IMG/VR virus record: IMGVR_UViG_2703718841_000001
Strand: one strand, 5' to 3'
Length of the DNA: 16,747 nucleotides
Source: a virus
Lineage: Duplodnaviria; Heunggongvirae; Uroviricota; Caudoviricetes
Shown: positions 20 through 14,720 of the stretch, piece after piece
Numbering within the stretch: position 1 is the stretch's first letter
Layout of the letters: each line of letters begins with the position of its first letter
Position numbers and translations under genes: made by a program
Notes under the pieces: generated by a model
Seen by the model: only the letters and a program-made list of their open reading frames with translations
Database searches by the model: none
What the model was told of the DNA's origin: nothing

Positions 20-1315
20 TTAATTTTTCATTGCTTCGTTATGGGGCATGGTTGGGGCAAACTCGCTTAACTGTGTATTTAACAAAGCTACCTGTGCATT
101 ATTGTTTTCAGACATCCATTTTCCGTATACCTGAAATACCATTTGCGCATCTGCATGGCCCATCTGGTTTGCTATAAATGCCGGGTTAGCACCAGCTGTC
201 AGCGACCAGCAGGCATAAGTATGTCTCGACTGATATGATTTTCGATGGCGGAGTCCGGCACGTTTTATCGCTGCGTCCCACATCTGCCTTATTGAGTCAA
301 CGGTAAAATGGTCACCATAATTTTTTACTCTCGCTGACACTTCAGGTTGAAAAACAAAGGTGCATTTTTGTTTTTCTGTTCTGCCATACTCTCTGAGGTG
401 AACATCAATGATATGCTCTTTGCTCAGTCTCGTTAATGTCATCTGACTCCGGAGAGCGTCGATTGCTGGCTTAATAAGATGAATGACCCGATTGGTTCCC
501 GCCTGTGTTTTTGGTACCGTGAAACGGTCTTTTGCTAAATTTCTCCTGATCATCATTGTTCCATTTTTCAGATCTATGTCCTCCCATCCAAGTGCACACA
601 GCTCACCAGGGCGAACTCCAGTATAAACAGAAACACACCATAAATTTTTTGCTTGCTGATTTCTGCACGCATCGATAAGACGGATAAATTCTTCCCGCGA
701 AAGAGGATCCGGAATGGTTCTTGATTCCTTTAATGGCGAGATCCCCTTAAACGGATTATCTGCCAGGTAACCGTTATCAACACCAAACTGGAACACGGCG
801 TTAAGATTTGTCATGTAATTATTTACAGTTACAGCCGATCTCCCTGGTTGTGTAACAATATAGTTACTTTTGGGGATCTGGTATCCAGTCAGTAACTCTT
901 TACGAACCTCCAGTAATTTTTCTTTATTAATCGATGAGGCAAGATTTTTTTCACCGATTATGCTCAGGATATTTTTGATGACGGCACGGTATGTGTTGAG
1001 TGATGTTTTGGCGACTTCAGTTTCTTTCAGTGCCAGAAATTTTTCAGCCAGTTCTTTTATGGTTAAATCTTGTCGGGCCTCACCAAATTTTTCCAGATTG
1101 CGTGAGGAGGGAAACTGTTTTGCATAGTCGAAAACACCAGTTTTTATTTCGTAACAAACAGAGGAGCGTAGTTCACCTGCAACGCGCCTGTTTTTTGCTG
1201 TGTCAGGAACCCCCAGATTTTCCCTGACTCTTACGTCTTTATAAACAAACCAGATACGTAATTTCCCTCCATGGTTTTCCACGCCTGTCGGATATTTCAT
1301 TTCAACTTCTCTCAT
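20..1315 (-). CDS. Phage-type tyrosine recombinase (integrase)
   Basis: 431-codon ORF. C-terminal region carries tyrosine-recombinase catalytic signature (…RHRKSYQSRHTYACWSL…GHADAQMVFQVYGKW). Sits beside an excisionase-like gene, as in prophage integration modules. Alternative start at 1300 (MKYPTG…). Confidence 0.88.
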   Translation of the reverse strand: MREVEMKYPTGVENHGGKLRIWFVYKDVRVRENLGVPDTAKNRRVAGELRSSVCYEIKTGVFDYAKQFPSSRNLEKFGEARQDLTIKELAEKFLALKETEVAKTSLNTYRAVIKNILSIIGEKNLASSINKEKLLEVRKELLTGYQIPKSNYIVTQPGRSAVTVNNYMTNLNAVFQFGVDNGYLADNPFKGISPLKESRTIPDPLSREEFIRLIDACRNQQAKNLWCVSVYTGVRPGELCALGWEDIDLKNGTMMIRRNLAKDRFTVPKTQAGTNRVIHLIKPAIDALRSQMTLTRLSKEHIIDVHLREYGRTEKQKCTFVFQPEVSARVKNYGDHFTVDSIRQMWDAAIKRAGLRHRKSYQSRHTYACWSLTAGANPAFIANQMGHADAQMVFQVYGKWMSENNNAQVALLNTQLSEFAPTMPHNEAMKN

Positions 1316-1334
1316 TAGTTAGTGTGGCTTTTAG

Positions 1335-1586
1335 TCAAGTAAGATGACGTCTTGGTCTCGCTGATGCCTGGCGCTCAATCCAGCGATCAATTTCTTCCAG
1401 GTTGTAAAAGCATGGACTGTTATCCCATGGCATACCGTCATGAGCGACATGCTTATATTCCCTTCCTTCCATAAACGATTTTTCCCGGGCCTTTTTTAAC
1501 GTACCTTTTTTTATTCCTTTCAGCGCAATTAACTGCTCTTCGGATACCCATTTGCCGGGAGAGACAATCATGATTACTTCGCTCAT
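1335..1586 (-). CDS. Excisionase-like small DNA-binding protein (Xis/AlpA-like)
   Basis: 83-codon ORF immediately upstream of the integrase on the same strand. Small basic protein with W…G.KK.TL.KAREK…EG.EY pattern typical of excisionase-like proteins. Family assigned from pattern and position only. Confidence 0.55.
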   Translation of the reverse strand: MSEVIMIVSPGKWVSEEQLIALKGIKKGTLKKAREKSFMEGREYKHVAHDGMPWDNSPCFYNLEEIDRWIERQASARPRRHLT

Positions 1587-1658
1587 CGATTTCTTTATCT
1601 CTTACATCAGACGAGCGCCGGTTGCAGAATACCAGTCACAACCGGCGACAGTTGAACA

Positions 1659-4130
1659 TTAAGAATCAGCCTGACTCGGGATCAGTTTTTGCCAGATAAC
1701 TGAAACGTATTTTGCCTGGTAACGGGCGTCATCAAGTGCATTATGGCGCTCACCTTCGAATGGAATAGCCGTTCTGGCATCGAAGTCTATGGCTTTCCCC
1801 AGCTCAACGATTGTGCGTACATCGCGATCGTTGTAGTAACGCCACGGGCAGGGGATCCCCTGCCGTTCGTATGAACGGCGCAAAATCGTGTTGTCGAAGT
1901 TGGCTCCATTTCCCCAAACCTGAACAAAAAATTCACCGGAGTTTTCGTCGATAAATTCTCGCAATTGTAACAGTGCATCATCTAACGGGATTTCATCGGT
2001 CATAATGGCAGATTGCGCTTCGCGTGATTGCTTAAGCCACCATTTAATGGTGTCCCGATCAATGACTCCGCCAGCAGTTTCCAGATCGATAGTCTTACTA
2101 AATTCCGGTCCCATATCTCCGGTTTGCGGATCGAAAAATATTGCACCTATTGAGATGATCGGGGCATCAGGATTTTTTCCCATGGTTTCAAGGTCGATCA
2201 TTAGATGGTCACACGTCCTGCTGGTGGATGTGATTTCGTGATGACCGTTCACCTTAATTGGGTGATCTGCCGTCTCGCCAGTTTCATTATCGCTATTGTG
2301 ATGCTGATTGCCGCCAGTGTTCTCCTTGTGTGGATGTTCAGCGCCTTCCATTTCCTCCGGATCATCTTCCTGAACTTCAACCTGATACTCTTCATCGAAT
2401 GTTTCTTGGTATGTTGCGTCGCCCATCACCGCGCCACAATCAGGGCAGTTGCCGCCGCCGGTCTGACCGCAGGCGGTGCAGACTTTTTCCACTTCCTGTT
2501 GCGCTACTGGTTCAGGCTGTTTCGTTTCTGGCTCGTTTTGTAACGCATTTGGACTGTTTTGTTCCGCTTTTTGGTAGTTCCGTTCCGATTCATGCTGGTT
2601 CTGGTTCACAGAATCGCGGGTCTGGAGCCCCTTAACCCATTTCGGATCATTCGGGTCACTAATCCCTTCAACAAATTCACCACGTGATGCAGCAAGCAAC
2701 TTATCGGCGTCAGGCTGGCTGATATTGGCTGCCTGCATAATTTTGTTTACTTCGTCAGCGGTAACTTTTATCGGCTCTGGTTGTTCTGAATCTTCAGCGG
2801 TATCTACATTTTGCGGTAAGCCCGTGTATGTGCCATTTTTTCGGGCAAAATATTCTTCTTTTGTGATTTCAGTGGCGCCAGCAGCCAGTGCCTTATCCAG
2901 ACCAGAGAGTTTGTTTGCGCGACCGTATTTTTCTCCGTCCTTATCTGCGAAGAGGAAATAGAACGGCCTCTCACGCTCTACAGATGGTTCAGCTTCCGGC
3001 GCGGTTTCATTTTTTGGGATATCAGATACCTCAGTTTCCACTGCATCAGTTTGTGTTTCTGATGACTGGAGAACATCAACAGTGCCCAGGTCTGTTTCTT
3101 CATTCTCAAACACGCCCTTTGTCGTCAGGTATTCGCAGATATATTTGTTCAGTGCTACGGGATCTTTGTGAATGTCGATCGGACGCTCACGGACAAGGCC
3201 AAAAATAGTTTGGCGGTCGTAGCGAAGGGCATCAGGCTGTTTGCGCATTGATGCCGAGATACGCTTCCAGTCTTCGCGGTCGTTGTCGATAACTTCTTTT
3301 TTTGCCCAGCGATGGATGCTGCCGTCAATGTTTCCGGCATCCACATCACTAGGCCAGAGAGCGTAGGCCAGTTCGTCATCCAGTGTTTTCCATGTCTGCT
3401 TGTATTCGCGATGAATGGCAGCAATGACCGGGCTGATTTTTCCTGTTGAATTTTCAGTGTACTGTTGATTGGCTCTGGCGCGGGCGAGATCAACAACAGA
3501 CGTGTATTTTCCGGTTTCCTTGCGTTCACCTTCGCGACGTTTTTTCCAGATGCGCATCTCTGCCTGAATTTCGGGCCATTTAGCACCAGGAATACATTTA
3601 TGCTTAACCCACCCAATGGCGTGCAACTTAAGCTCCGGATACATGGCGTTAACTTCTGGCATTTTCATCAACGCTTCAACGATATGTCCGTCGAATGTTG
3701 CCATGTCTTCCTGCAACAATTCCTGTGCGCTAATAACCATATCAACGGTGATGTTTTCACATGTGTCGAACTTAACCATGACAGCGTTCTGTACTTCAGG
3801 GGCCAGCTTGTCAAAAGTGACGTTCATCGGATCGGATTCAGTCTCAACCGGGACAAAAGAAGCAGACTCCTCATCCCAGCGGTTTTCCTGCATATATTCA
3901 GCATCCCATGAATCGAGGGCAGGGCGGGGTATGCCAGGTTTATCCTCGCAGACAATAAATTTATAAGCGCAGTCCTGAGCAGCCGGATAATGTTCCAGGA
4001 ATTGCCAGTGAAATTTTGCTCGAGCACGGCGTTCGTCGCCAGCTTCAATGGCTGTGGCTACAGCCACAGCGCCTTCTTCCCTTGTTGCCAGTTCGTCAGG
4101 AATAGCGGCGCAAATAAAGACTTTACTCAT
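1659..4130 (-). CDS. Large exonuclease-like protein with C-terminal DEDDh 3'-5' exonuclease domain
   Basis: Long ORF (track 1659..4166). Preferred start is ATG at 4130 (MSKVFICAA…) with GAGG about 10 nt upstream. C-terminal ~185 aa carries DEDDh motifs: [30 protein letters not shown]. Centre is acidic and low-complexity with a CxxC…CxxC zinc ribbon ([16 protein letters not shown]). Confidence 0.8.
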
Positions 4131-4222
4131 TTGTTTTAACCTCATGACAGATTTAAGGATGAACAAATCCCTGCCATTGCTGGCATATAAGAATGAAACC
4201 GGATATTTATTACGGAACTGTT

Positions 4223-4414
4223 TTAAAGACCTGCCGGGATTTCGATATTATCCTGGTGAATAACTTTATCGACCGGGTAACAGTTACCGGGAATTTTCTG
4301 TTCGGTTGCTGCAGTCATACACTCCTGCATTGTCCTGTGAACACTGACTGCAATATCAACTGGCTCTCCGGAAACAAGAAAAACTGTCAGAACAAGCACA
4401 AATGCTGAATTCAT
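4223..4414 (-). CDS. Small signal-peptide (exported) hypothetical protein
   Basis: Preferred start ATG at 4414 ([18 protein letters not shown]…) with AAGGA 9 nt upstream. N-terminal hydrophobic signal-like segment; two Cys in the mature part. 63 aa. Confidence 0.5.
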
Positions 4415-4566
4415 TGTGCACATCCTTTTGGCATCAGACGTAAACGAGCCAGCATTGAAACAATGCATATTTTATTTAATAGCTCCCGTTCTTGTTTTCT
4501 CTTGTTAATGGCATCTTCAGTAAATACTGGGTTAACTGGACTGCCTGGGCCAATGACGTGCGCACA

Positions 4567-4782
4567 ATGCGGATGCTGGATGGCAGAAGCCACAGACAAA
4601 TTTGCGAAATGTTTGGTCGGGTTCAGCGAGATCCATTCTGGGTAAAAAACATCATGAGCCCGTCAAAGCTCCGCGAAAAATGGGACGAACTGGTCATCCG
4701 CCTGGGACGTTCACCTGTACAGCGTTGTGTTAATCATATTTCTGAACCGGATACAGAAATTCCGCCTGGTTTCAGAGGATAA
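4567..4782 (+). CDS. Hypothetical protein (start uncertain)
   Basis: Track ORF 4492..4782 starts at TTG; first in-frame ATG is 4567 (MRMLDGRSHRQICEMFG…). No convincing SD. Overlaps a second frame (4463..4645), so a frameshifted remnant is possible. Confidence 0.3.
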   Translation: MRMLDGRSHRQICEMFGRVQRDPFWVKNIMSPSKLREKWDELVIRLGRSPVQRCVNHISEPDTEIPPGFRG

Positions 4783-4822: not shown

Positions 4823-5245
4823 GTGGCAAAAGTTTTTACACAAGAAGAGCGGGAAAAAATTAAATGGCAGGTGGTGGAACTCGTGCGCCAGAGCGGCCGT
4901 GAGACGTTACGGCAACTGGAAGCTAAAACAGGTGCGACTAGATATCTGATGAGCGTTCTTGCCAGAGAGCTGGTAGCCAGTGGCGATGTATACAACTCCG
5001 GCTACGGGTTATTCCCCTCTGAACAGGCGCGTAAGGACTGGCAAAACGCCCGCAAAAAACTCTCGAGGGCAAAGGTGAAGAAACCTGCTGTGGTTGATCC
5101 GGACCTTATCTGGTCATCACCTGACGGAGAAATACGTCGCTACGACAGTCGCCTAAACATAATCTGTCGCGAGTGCCGGAAGAGCGAAGTTATGCAGCGC
5201 ATACTGGCTTTCTATCAGGGTAATTTTCAGGACGTGGCGCAGTGA
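4823..5245 (+). CDS. Hypothetical protein, possible winged-helix DNA-binding protein
   Basis: 140-codon ORF with GTG start and GGGGG SD about 4 nt upstream. Its stop TGA (5243-5245) overlaps the GTG start (5242) of the methyltransferase frame, indicating translational coupling. HTH-like segment RETLRQLEAKTGATRYLMSVLARELV. Confidence 0.6.
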   Translation: MAKVFTQEEREKIKWQVVELVRQSGRETLRQLEAKTGATRYLMSVLARELVASGDVYNSGYGLFPSEQARKDWQNARKKLSRAKVKKPAVVDPDLIWSSPDGEIRRYDSRLNIICRECRKSEVMQRILAFYQGNFQDVAQ

Positions 5246-5688
5246 GTGCACCGGCAACCATTCTTGATATGTGCTGTGGCAGCCGCATGTTCTGGTTCGA
5301 TAAGTCTGACGAACGGGCGATATTCAGCGATATCAGAAAAGAAGGATACACATTACGCAATGGGAGACGCTTGATTATCAGCCCTGACATTATCGCAGAT
5401 TTTCGTGCATTATCATTTGCAGACGCATCTTTTTCGATGGTTGTATTAGACCCTCCGCATCTTGAGAGTGTTGGTGATAACGCCTGGATGGGAAAGAAAT
5501 ATGGACGGCTGAATAAAGATGCCTGGCGTGATGATTCGCGACAGAGATTTAAAGAAGCCTTTCGGGTGTTGAGGCCGCACGGCGTTCTGATTTTTTAATG
5601 GAATGAAACGCAAATACCGGTAAGCCAGATTCTGGCACTGACAGACAGAAAACCTGTTATCTGTCAACGAACAGGGAAAAAACGATAA
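5242..5688 (+). pseudogene. SAM-dependent DNA methyltransferase, apparently interrupted by an in-frame TAA
   Basis: N-terminal 118 codons (5242..5598) carry LDMCCGSRMFWFDK and VVLDPPHL (DPPY-like) motifs. Frame stops at TAA 5596-5598 after …RPHGVLIF, yet the same frame reads on coherently (WNETQIPVSQILALTDRKPVICQRTGKKR) to TAA at 5686-5688. Confidence 0.55.
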
Positions 5689-6930: not shown

Positions 6931-7020
6931 ATACAGCGAACTCCATTGGTTTAGTTGGATATTTACTGTACTGGACAAAAACGGTTTGCGGGGAAATCTT
7001 AGTTAAGTAGAATGACTGCG

Positions 7021-7190
7021 GGTGCTTGAGGCTATCTGCCTCGGGCATGGACACCAACGGCAGATAGAGAAAAGCCCCAGTTAACATTACGCGTCCTGCA
7101 AGACGCTTAACATTAATCTGAGGCCAATTTCATGCTAGACACATGTAGGTTAGCCTCTTACGTGCCGAAAGGCACGGAGAAGCAGGCTAT
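7021..7190 (+). other. hok/sok-type (type I toxin-antitoxin) leader remnant lacking the hok ORF
   Basis: 15-mer GGAGAAGCAGGCTAT at 7176-7190 is identical to 10490-10504, the SD/start region of hokD in this window. Upstream has hok-leader-like hairpins (7032-7040 with 7059-7067; GAAA-loop hairpin 7161-7176) and a mok-like frame from ATG 7132 to TAA 7207-7209. No Hok-like ORF follows. Confidence 0.5.
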
Positions 7191-8700
7191 TGTTAACACC
7201 AAGCTGTAATGTCCCCTTTGAACCATTCTAAAATGTCCCCAGACAATTCTCTGGGGGATTTTTCATGATCAAAGAGACTGTTACGATGAGTCATAAGGAA
7301 CTCCACCGACTTCAGATTATTCAGGAACAAGCTGCGGCACGCATTGGCATTTCTATTCGGCAGGTTAAACGTCTGGTGCAACGGTATAGAAATGAAGGGC
7401 CTTCTGGTCTGGTTTCCCACCGACGTGGAAAGCGTCCTAATAATTCCTTTTCTACTGAATTCAGAGCAACAGTAATTTCACTCCTCAAAGGCCGTTACGC
7501 TGATTTTGGACCTACGTTTGCGTGCGAAAAATTGCGCGAGATACACGGTTTATCTTTATCCGTTGAAACTCTCAGAAAGTGGATGATAGAAGAGGGGTTA
7601 TGGCGTGAACGCCGTCGTAAAATTGCCCGTATATATCAACGCCGCATGCGACGACCATCTTACGGTGAACTGATCCAGATTGATGGCTCACCTCATGACT
7701 GGTTTGAAAATCGAGGCCCCAGATGTACACTGATCGTTTTCATTGATGATGCCACCAGTGCGTTGATGGCGTTGCGTTTTGTGCCTGCTGAAACAACCCG
7801 GGCTTACATGGAAACCCTCCGGGGTTACCTTAATGATCATGGCGTACCGCTCGCTCTCTACTCTGATAGACACAGTATATTCAGGGTAAATAACCCAGAG
7901 CGGGAAGGTGAGCTGACCCAGTTCACTCGTGCGATAAAGACACTGGGCATCGAGCCAATCCATGCCAACAGCCCGCAGGCAAAAGGGCGGGTAGAGCGCG
8001 CCAATCAGACACTACAGGACAGGCTGGTCAAAGAAATGCGGCTTCAGAATATCAGTGATATTGAAACAGCAAATGCATGGTTGCCGACCTTTATTGAAGC
8101 CTATAACAACCGGTTCGCTACGTCGCCTCGTACTACTGATAATGCTCATCTTGATGTGCACCATTCTGAAGAGGAACTGGGTTATATCTTCAGCCTACAG
8201 GCGAAGCGCGTTCTGTCTAAAAATCTCACTTTCCAGTACAAAAGCAGTGCGTTTCAGGTACGCAGTGAGGGCCGGGGATATCGACTTAGGCATTCGGTTG
8301 TTACTGTATGCGAGAACTTTGACGGTGAAATTAACGTTCTGTATGACGGGAAAGCGCTGGGCTGGGAAAAGTATGTTGATGGCCCGGAGCCTATACCACT
8401 GGATGATGAAAAGAGTGTCCATGAACGAGTGGATAATGCCCGTATTGATTTACGCTCAAAATACTATGTTAAACCTAAAGCTGACCATCCCTGGCTTACG
8501 CGCCGAACGCAAAGTCATCAGCAAGTTAAGCCCCCGAAGTTACCTAAAAAGAAGCCTGATCCCGATAAAAAAGATTGAAACCAAGATCGATTCGGTTGAG
8601 TGCATATCCATTCATAGGGTAGATTCTTAAGTCGCGTTTCTGGTGTTCATTTTCGGGTGGTTTGTTACTTGTTTTACCGGGGATATGCCAGAAACGCGCT
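7191..8700 (+). mobile_element. Insertion sequence carrying the transposase (ends not resolved; coordinates approximate)
   Basis: Left boundary placed at the point where the hok leader homology breaks (7190/7191). Right boundary is a guess; no clean terminal inverted repeats or target-site duplication could be found by eye. Confidence 0.3.
7265..8578 (+). CDS. DDE transposase with N-terminal HTH and integrase-core (rve) domain
   Basis: 437-codon ORF. N-terminal HTH (ARIGISIRQVKRLVQRY), rve-like core (IQIDGSPHDWFE…LYSDRHSIF…QAKGRVERANQTLQ), basic C-terminal tail. Family not resolved (IS481-like or ISNCY/IS1202-like). GGGGGA SD lies in a hairpin just upstream. Confidence 0.85.
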   Translation: MIKETVTMSHKELHRLQIIQEQAAARIGISIRQVKRLVQRYRNEGPSGLVSHRRGKRPNNSFSTEFRATVISLLKGRYADFGPTFACEKLREIHGLSLSVETLRKWMIEEGLWRERRRKIARIYQRRMRRPSYGELIQIDGSPHDWFENRGPRCTLIVFIDDATSALMALRFVPAETTRAYMETLRGYLNDHGVPLALYSDRHSIFRVNNPEREGELTQFTRAIKTLGIEPIHANSPQAKGRVERANQTLQDRLVKEMRLQNISDIETANAWLPTFIEAYNNRFATSPRTTDNAHLDVHHSEEELGYIFSLQAKRVLSKNLTFQYKSSAFQVRSEGRGYRLRHSVVTVCENFDGEINVLYDGKALGWEKYVDGPEPIPLDDEKSVHERVDNARIDLRSKYYVKPKADHPWLTRRTQSHQQVKPPKLPKKKPDPDKKD

Positions 8701-13922: not shown

Positions 13923-14222
13923 AAAAATTCCTTAATACTGATAACTTGGCGCACTATACACACGTTCCTGAAGAAAGCTATAGTTTTTTGATGGGGTTGA
14001 AGATGGCTGGATGTCTAAAATAAACATTGCTTCATATGTTCAACTATGCGTTAATGATTGCGTCGGTTTGAAGAACAGACGATATACGAAGTAGTTTACT
14101 AAAGCAGTTCTCATTTCAGGTGTTATTCACTTATTCCTTCTTTGAGTCTCTCCAATTAAGTACGAAGTCGTTTCTGTTATGCAAACCATTTATGCCGAAA
14201 GGCTCAAGTTAAGGAATGTAGA

Positions 14223-14438
14223 ATGTCAAATAAAATGACTGGTTTAGTAAAATGGTTTAACGCTGATAAAGGTTTCGGCTTTATTTCTCCTGTTGATGGT
14301 AGTAAAGATGTGTTTGTGCATTTTTCTGCGATTCAGAATGATAATTATCGAACCTTATTTGAAGGTCAAAAGGTTACCTTCTCTATAGAGAGTGGTGCTA
14401 AAGGTCCTGCAGCAGCAAATGTCATCATTACTGATTAA
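14223..14438 (+). CDS. cspB: Cold-shock protein CspB
   Basis: 71-codon [41 protein letters not shown]…, with RNP motifs. Long 5' leader (13923-14222) shared with divergent cspF. Confidence 0.88.
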
Positions 14439-14720
14439 AATTCATCGCTCGTCTGTATACGATAACGAAGAAGGCTGATGCCTGAGTAGAGATACGGACA
14501 GAGTAGTGAATATTGGATCTCTTTAATAAAAAGTAAGGAGGTCCAATACATGAAACAATGGCTAGCATATTTGGCAAAATCTTAATCAGGAAAAGTATGC
14601 TAACCATTGTGGTGAAGTGCAGGTTTGCTGCATGAATAGTTTTACAGCAGAAGCTAACTGCTGGCATGGCAAAACAAAGTGCGTAAGTGGATGACTCCCA
14701 CAAAAAGCACCACAATCTCA

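Follow-up and report, generated by a model that had tools for sequence, protein, structure and literature searches.

An intact ydfE-type gene of a Qin-like prophage encodes a RecE-family scaffold with a predicted DEDDh 3′–5′ exonuclease domain

The gene at positions 1659–4130 of virus record IMGVR_UViG_2703718841_000001 encodes a RecE-family scaffold with a swapped nuclease. The window, i.e. the whole stretch of 16,747 nucleotides (nt) analysed, is a Qin-like lambdoid prophage located beside rspB, at the Qin site of Escherichia coli K-12. The C-terminus of the 823-residue (aa) product is, judged from sequence, a DEDDh exonuclease of predicted 3′–5′ polarity. RecE carries a PD-(D/E)XK nuclease of 5′–3′ polarity at the same place. 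The best explanation overall, with a probability of roughly 0.45, is that the scaffold and its 3′–5′ exonuclease feed host RecBCD-Chi-RecA recombination. The domain identities themselves are assigned with near certainty.

Family PF16473 (Rv2179c-like DEDDh exonuclease) matches aa 642–813 over profile positions 2–177 of 177 (E 2.4e-67, 226.5 bits; gathering cut-off 27 bits). RNase_T is a weak second Pfam match of this domain. The preliminary description of the gene had named three DnaQ-like motifs in the C-terminus; all are present (DLET at aa 646–649, FDNTIL at aa 745–750, HNALDD at aa 796–801), and the domain falls inside the DEDD superfamily. Alignment A4, with four relatives from the 50% clusters and two EcD-like proteins, shows no change at D646, E648, D746, H796 or D801 (relatives down to 36% identity). 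The D-x-E of phage T4 DexA (IIDFET) aligns with D646/E648 and DexA D119 (SFDFPIL) with D746; the H-x4-D pair H796/D801 matches DexA H186/D191 by motif. Among solved structures, sequence searches retrieved T4 DexA (8KEL/8KEN) and no other; E is 1.5e-6 for the single sequence and 3.7e-19 when a small profile of the domain is used (8KEL). Rv2179c itself was not among the PDB sequence relatives retrieved. As had been supposed, the C-terminus is not of the PD-(D/E)XK type: a Pfam scan of the 823-aa protein gives no PF12684 match at E up to 1, unlike K-12 RecE, which scores 4.1e-28. A phmmer query with RecE 601–866 gives no match to P0111, a near-identical cluster representative with the DEDDh domain in that place.

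Among characterised enzymes, T4 DexA and E. coli EcD ('HREX') come closest; both are DNA 3′–5′ exonucleases of family PF16473 in which the five catalytic residues are conserved. DexA (227 aa) and EcD (189 aa) are stand-alone enzymes, whereas the window domain is the C-terminus of a scaffold protein. The domain shares 38% identity (E 2e-37) with an EcD-like protein of 189 aa, which was rebuilt from IMG/VR loci via the published EcD forward primer, carries Ala78 as stated for EcD and is not the GenBank record (PMC12153337 for primer and residue). Kang et al. (NAR 2025; PMC12153337) solved the structure of DexA. They report that EcD digests T4 DNA containing 5-hydroxymethylcytosine (5hmC), not unmodified DNA, and that plasmid-borne EcD protects E. 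coli from T4. DexA W152 and D169 are proposed there for 5hmC recognition, D90 is a tetramer contact needed for activity on unmodified DNA, and Ala78 of EcD is the basis of selectivity. In the window protein the proposed recognition Trp is Tyr (Y766; Y, W or C among close relatives). D718 aligns with DexA D90 and EcD A78, so that the Asp lost in EcD is kept. Lys stands opposite the acidic EcD residue taken, by a mapping of the present analysis, as the counterpart of D169. Pro replaces S87 of the tetramer pair in DexA. Because the recognition Trp is replaced and the D90 equivalent is kept, the EcD mechanism should not be carried over uncritically to the window protein.

The remainder of the protein is of RecE type. 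Residues 474–627 align with K-12 RecE 454–592 at 67% identity over 154 aa (BLASTP, E 3e-60), including the CxxC-x7-CxxC motif and the acidic tail; DNA identity in this module is 78%. The similarity stops at aa 627 (RecE 592), exactly where the RecE nuclease and the DEDDh domain start. A long acidic linker and a zinc ribbon had been described as paired with the DEDDh domain. Both are present, but the pairing is not special: on alignment they are the central module of RecE itself. Since ribbon and linker belong to that module, the protein is read as a RecE-family scaffold with a swapped nuclease. The cysteines of the ribbon are C551/C554 and C562/C565. The spacer before them (aa 501–550) contains 18% Q, 12% N and 16% E; aa 568–640 contain 26% D+E with a net charge of −16. 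The module is mostly disordered in an AlphaFold2 (AF2) model of low confidence. K-12 RecE and roughly every second relative have the ribbon (alignment A2). It is dispensable in the family: the DEDDh forms P0122, P0141 and P0241 lack it, as do the PD-(D/E)XK forms P0143 and P0232. A 10-residue core (aa 489–498) is always kept, even in relatives without the ribbon.

The N-terminal 300 aa, earlier thought to hold no recognisable motif, belong to families that are distantly RecE-like: precomputed Pfam matches on homologues assign this region to YdfE_N (PF27430) and YdfE_C (PF27432). RecE has Exonuc_VIII (PF06630) as its N-terminal domain, in place of YdfE_N. By hhalign, a profile built on the first 470 aa matches RecE 17–447 at E 2.9e-23, a value partly circular, as the profile includes RecE-type sequences. 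The YdfE_C-type module contains a helical domain (about aa 245–340), a disordered acidic stretch (346–383) and a small beta-hairpin/helix domain (388–432). The NCBIfam RecE equivalog (PRK09709 / NF007259) matches aa 246–623 at model positions 271–600 of 877, with 281.7 bits against a cut-off of 1269. The protein is not an ordinary RecE orthologue, in agreement with the preliminary description.

A search with aa 1–630 against 1.84 billion cluster representatives gave 245 clusters. Every pairing of N-type and C-type was found by phmmer on 50%-cluster representatives, YdfE- or RecE-type N-termini occurring with either nuclease. DEDDh forms include P0111, P0121, P0122, P0128, P0138, P0141 and P0241. 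PD-(D/E)XK forms include P0143, P0201 and P0232 and, more weakly, P0131, P0200 and P0230. P0128 (locus L006, 6001–8418) joins the two types: nt 1–1820 share 92% identity with K-12 recE, and nt 1387–2418 (1032 nt) share 93.6% with the window gene. From these identities it is a clean natural hybrid of recE and the ydfE type, with the crossover placed within the shared central module. Its locus is a Rac-like prophage (kilR, ydaE, sieB), in which the exonuclease gene is followed directly by xis-int, without recT.

RecE (exonuclease VIII; Rac prophage, K-12 b1350) and the window protein occupy the same slot in the early-left operon, upstream of xis-int. The intact operon, as in phage Tritos and K-12, consists of the CI/DicA repressor gene, ydfA/B/C, DicF, dicB, ydfD, the exonuclease gene, xis and int. 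The exonuclease gene is the last of the early-left (dicB) operon before xis-int, which is the recE/exo position that had been claimed for it. The two nuclease types differ in their partners. A RecT gene overlaps downstream in the PD-(D/E)XK loci P0201 (PF03837) and P0131 (E 2e-36), and K-12 recE likewise has recT downstream. No annealase is present in the DEDDh loci examined, i.e. the window, HannyBb, Tritos, PPompW, vB_EcoS-640R1, P0128, P0122, P0141 (two contigs) and P0241; the earlier remark that a recT/bet-like partner was not visible holds for all of them. Intact relatives (the HannyBb early-left operon and complete Tritos) were included because the window is a degraded prophage. In the complete Tritos genome neither annotation nor PHROG scans of unannotated proteins revealed an annealase. 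A tblastn search with three RecT proteins, run on Tritos, the HannyBb stretch and the window, returned a single match, at chance level (E 0.39). Nuclease type thus alternates strictly at one locus: PD-(D/E)XK with RecT, DEDDh without annealase. A HannyBb open reading frame (ORF) of 205 aa between repressor and dicB was considered as a hidden annealase and rejected; it has no Pfam match and overlaps small ydfB/ydfC-like ORFs.

With 0.43 Chi sites (GCTGGTGG) expected, the window contains seven, of which five are on the plus strand. Tritos contains nine on the top strand and two on the bottom strand, against about 1.1 and 0.4 expected. No recognised anti-RecBCD gene was found. Zheng et al. (Genome Res 2025; PMC12315714) record DnaQ-like 3′–5′ nucleases in lambdoid early-left operons, often next to int. 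Table 1 of that paper gives Tritos, whose gene is 98.9% identical to the window gene at the DNA level, as prototype of a class with a nuclease, without single-strand annealing protein, single-stranded DNA-binding protein or anti-RecBCD gene, and with many Chi sites. RecBCD is shown there to aid growth of a Chi-rich lambdoid phage without a Rec module. The Chi counts of the window and Tritos match this class. The gene, its Pfam families and the pattern of a nuclease without annealase are already in databases and in the 2025 paper, and no new kind of system is described here. In the available text of that paper the protein is not dissected; the RecE central module, the crossover, the rule linking nuclease type and RecT, and the function are not described there. 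A literature search for ydfE as the Qin exonuclease, or for Rv2179c-type enzymes in prophages, found nothing.

The following course of events would account for these features. The PD-(D/E)XK 5′–3′ nuclease of RecE has been replaced by a DexA/EcD-type DEDDh domain via recombination inside the shared central module. In intact phages the gene would be transcribed last in the early-left operon. As this operon is repressor-controlled, the product would be made after induction or infection. The enzyme would be a metal-dependent 3′–5′ exonuclease acting on DNA 3′ ends, brought by the RecE-type scaffold to the same partner or DNA-end context as RecE. It would remove 3′ tails, not create them. Single-strand annealing of the Red/RecET type would then be impossible because the tails are removed and an annealase is lacking. 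The phage would rely instead on host RecBCD-Chi-RecA recombination, and the nuclease would trim 3′-tailed ends to near-blunt so that RecBCD can load. The notion that single-strand 3′–5′ DNA exonucleases blunt ends for RecBCD loading stems from work on ExoI and ExoX of E. coli. The loading role is favoured because dependence on Chi and RecBCD has been proposed for this phage class. The RecBCD-feeding step taken by itself is tentative; that the substrate is DNA rather than RNA is quite probable.

Several points weigh against this reading. The role of the 823-aa protein is derived from sequence, and a fold match searched for the RecE/YdfE-type scaffold was not found. The AF2 model of aa 471–823 (17-sequence alignment) has a mean predicted local distance difference test score of 48 and is too poor for active-site geometry, so that the DEDD fold assignment rests on sequence, for which the evidence is ample. 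PMC12315714 notes that 3′–5′ exonucleases as a rule work against recombination, since they destroy the 3′ end that would invade. The window copy may be silent because the operon promoter region is deleted and no promoter-like site precedes the gene on its own strand; the sole such site in 1300–4700 lies on the opposite strand, by a test that is weak. The naming of the Pfam family and of many database copies, taken up below, also points elsewhere.

An exoribonuclease is the reading to which those names lead. PF16473 is named after the Mycobacterium tuberculosis exoribonuclease Rv2179c. The Prokaryotic Genome Annotation Pipeline (PGAP) calls the protein 'exonuclease', '3′-5′ exonuclease' or, often, '3′-5′ exoribonuclease'. 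The top Foldseek PDB matches of the poor model are DEDDh exonucleases acting on RNA (ERI3, 3′hExo, Orn; E 0.011 or worse, target-normalised template modelling score 0.34–0.45). A 3′–5′ exoribonuclease could serve in trimming or turnover of operon transcripts or of small RNAs such as DicF. Activity on both DNA and RNA is common among DEDDh enzymes, which makes the family name weak evidence. All PDB entries retrieved by sequence similarity are of the DNase DexA, the closest characterised homologue EcD is also a DNase, and on this recombination scaffold the domain takes the place of a DNA exonuclease. An RNA-directed role is considered improbable. The DEDDh protein is called 'exodeoxyribonuclease VIII' or 'exonuclease VIII, ds DNA exonuclease' in PV340562.1, OV696610.1 and the ON4706xx phage records; the annotation is carried by PhiR42_1, Tritos and the vB_EcoS phages. 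These labels, the shared central module and the partial NCBIfam match are what an ordinary RecE orthologue has in its favour. The domain scans refute it: PF12684 is matched by K-12 RecE and not by the window protein, and the equivalog score lies far below its cut-off. In addition, recT is absent and the predicted polarity is opposite. By the same comparison the exonuclease VIII label is wrong for the catalytic domain and its predicted polarity.

Kinship with EcD and DexA suggests two further roles. The protein may be an anti-phage (superinfection exclusion) nuclease of the HREX/EcD kind, degrading incoming modified DNA (e.g. with 5hmC) and sparing host and own DNA; the 38% identity and the reported action of EcD on T4 (PMC12153337) are in line with this. 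So are an ORF that is intact and 100% conserved inside an otherwise degraded prophage, its wide occurrence in E. coli genomes and its place adjoining int. Prophage accessory and defence genes often sit next to int. The gene is, however, inside a repressed early-left operon and has no promoter-like site of its own. At the positions tied to 5hmC selectivity it has Y766 (variable in close relatives), Lys opposite the presumed D169 counterpart, and D718 for Ala78. EcD lacks the 630-aa RecE-type scaffold, which is common to bona fide recombination nucleases. Defence of this kind is unlikely to be the role. Retention of D718 is in line with a scavenger like T4 DexA, which would degrade host or competitor DNA to mononucleotides in lytic growth without a role in recombination: the equivalent D90 is needed for the DexA tetramer active on unmodified DNA (PMC12153337). 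Homology to DexA and the early lytic expression expected from operon position agree with it, but the Pro at the S87 position of the tetramer pair does not. The RecE scaffold and the strict alternation with PD-(D/E)XK plus RecT would be left unexplained. Lambdoid phages are not known to degrade the host chromosome. A scavenging role, too, has a low probability.

A more general proposal is doubtful. In lambdoid early-left operons, the RecE/YdfE scaffold may serve as a general adaptor for interchangeable DNA-end effectors: a PD-(D/E)XK 5′–3′ nuclease with RecT, a DEDDh 3′–5′ nuclease without annealase and, possibly, a fused Rad52-like annealase. The DEDDh form would then stand for annealase-independent end handling. 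If so, its part would be either to pass phage DNA to the RecBCD-Chi-RecA recombination of the host or to attack competing DNA; about two in three complete E. coli genomes carry this form. The gene is among the commonest prophage genes of E. coli, often in several copies, and is routinely mislabelled exonuclease VIII. Because the predicted polarity is opposite and an annealase is lacking, the protein should not be named RecE or exonuclease VIII. The strict alternation of nucleases on a shared scaffold is a natural experiment on the long, enigmatic N-terminal 600 aa of RecE. The gene fits the proposed Chi-rich, RecBCD-reliant lambdoid class, and the role of a 3′–5′ exonuclease there is testable in the cultivable phages Tritos, HannyBb and PhiR42_1.

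The product is 100% identical to the PGAP 'exonuclease' WP_061357850.1, and the gene matches PHROG 2082 'exonuclease' over its full length. A longer TTG start at 4166 is used neither by PGAP nor in the K-12 ydfE annotation. ydfE, a pseudogene in K-12 (b1577, Qin), is here present in intact form. Residues 1–256 are 100% identical to the K-12 copy, which is cut by IS2 and ends after aa 256, leaving K-12 without a DEDDh domain at this gene. The two copies share the operon dicB-ydfD-ydfE and their chromosomal site beside rspB. At the DNA level the gene is 100% identical to that of PhiR42_1 and 99.7% to that of HannyBb. At least 80% of the query is covered in 3537 of 5426 complete E. coli genomes, with a median of two matching places per genome with any. 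The orthologue of PPompW_EH1846 (L043, 9001–11468), a prophage of enterohaemorrhagic E. coli type, is 90.4% identical and annotated as frameshifted. Given this annotated frameshift and the interruption by IS2 in K-12, the gene has been repeatedly inactivated as well as widely retained. The exoD gene of K-12 prophage DLP12 was considered as a fragment of the same gene and rejected, as there is no similarity. Coordinates are given in Table 1.

Table 1. Features of the exonuclease gene and its neighbourhood (positions in the window)
Feature	Position	Strand	Remarks
Exonuclease gene, complete, 823 aa + stop	1659..4130	−	Single ORF, stop codon included
Shine-Dalgarno GAGG	4140..4143	−	9 nt 5′ of ATG at 4130; read directly from the sequence
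N1 module, aa 1–260	3351..4130	−	Pfam YdfE_N type; alpha/beta domain about aa 1–100, helical domain about aa 105–205
N2 module, aa 261–470	2721..3350	−	Pfam YdfE_C type, distantly RecE-like
M module, aa 471–630, common to RecE	2241..2720	−	Conserved core, then Q/N/E-rich spacer, zinc ribbon and acidic tail
10-residue core motif, aa 489–498	2637..2666	−	Top conservation within shared module (alignment A2)
Putative zinc ribbon CxxC-x7-CxxC, aa 551–565	2436..2480	−	Beta-hairpin predicted, low confidence
Acidic tail, aa 568–630	2241..2429	−	By composition; ends where nuclease domain joins
Predicted DEDDh 3′–5′ exonuclease domain, aa 642–813	1692..2207	−	PF16473, DexA/EcD/Rv2179c family
Chi site GCTGGTGG within exonuclease gene	2220..2227	+	One of seven in window
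Excisionase (DUF1233)	1335..1586	−	Directly downstream of exonuclease gene
Tyrosine integrase	20..1315	−	Prophage end; chromosomal rspB beyond, as at K-12 Qin
ydfD (DUF1482)	4223..4414	−	Directly upstream of exonuclease gene, same operon
dicB 3′ remnant	4411..4533	−	Upstream dicA, ydfABC and DicF deleted in window
Chi sites	2220, 5897, 11514, 11571, 16138	+	Window sequence
Chi sites	12104, 12156	−	Window sequence

Relatives without a nuclease were also observed. They are P0129, P0135, P0136, P0153, P0169, P0185, P0188, P0194, P0209, P0228, P0234, P0255, P0260 and P0265 (alignment A6), YdfE/RecE-scaffold proteins of 680–814 aa labelled 'exonuclease' in PHROG 2489 and 7838. Their conserved C-terminal domain of about 270 aa contains two Rad52/Sak-like motifs (MRATE.FGP.G.GWG and KKSLTDA.KKALS.LGFSAD). 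It matches Pfam Rad52_Rad22 below threshold (E 0.027). Against a human RAD52 sequence entered by hand, the hhalign match is likewise sub-threshold (E 0.021) and colinear over RAD52 64–161. A PDB sequence search with this domain gave no match. The subgroup may be a fusion of scaffold and annealase. At locus L042 (5001–7226) a gene of this type is followed by a Sipho_Gp157 gene and then by an integrase gene. P0126 (L039, 5001–7109) and P0133 are of another kind. They have YdfE_N and YdfE_C, then a C-terminal region of about 260 aa that resembles neither nuclease and has no Pfam match; xis-int is next, without an annealase. This variant probably corresponds to the 'RecE-2' proteins without nuclease domain mentioned in PMC12315714.

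The window is degraded at 4411–4782, where oppositely oriented remnants of a replication region adjoin: a truncated ORF, a DUF977 gene (4823–5245) and a methyltransferase gene (5242–5598). DicF was not found in the window by Rfam. A full-length transposase of 437 aa with helix-turn-helix and rve_3 domains is encoded at 7265–8578 (plus strand) and assigned to ISNCY by PGAP in a related genome. Just upstream of it, at 7020–7191 (plus strand), is an Rfam match to sok antitoxin RNA (104 bits), with which no obvious hok ORF was identified. At 14062–14454 (plus strand) the cspA thermoregulator is matched in Rfam at 159 bits, ahead of a cspB-like cold-shock gene at 14223–14438.

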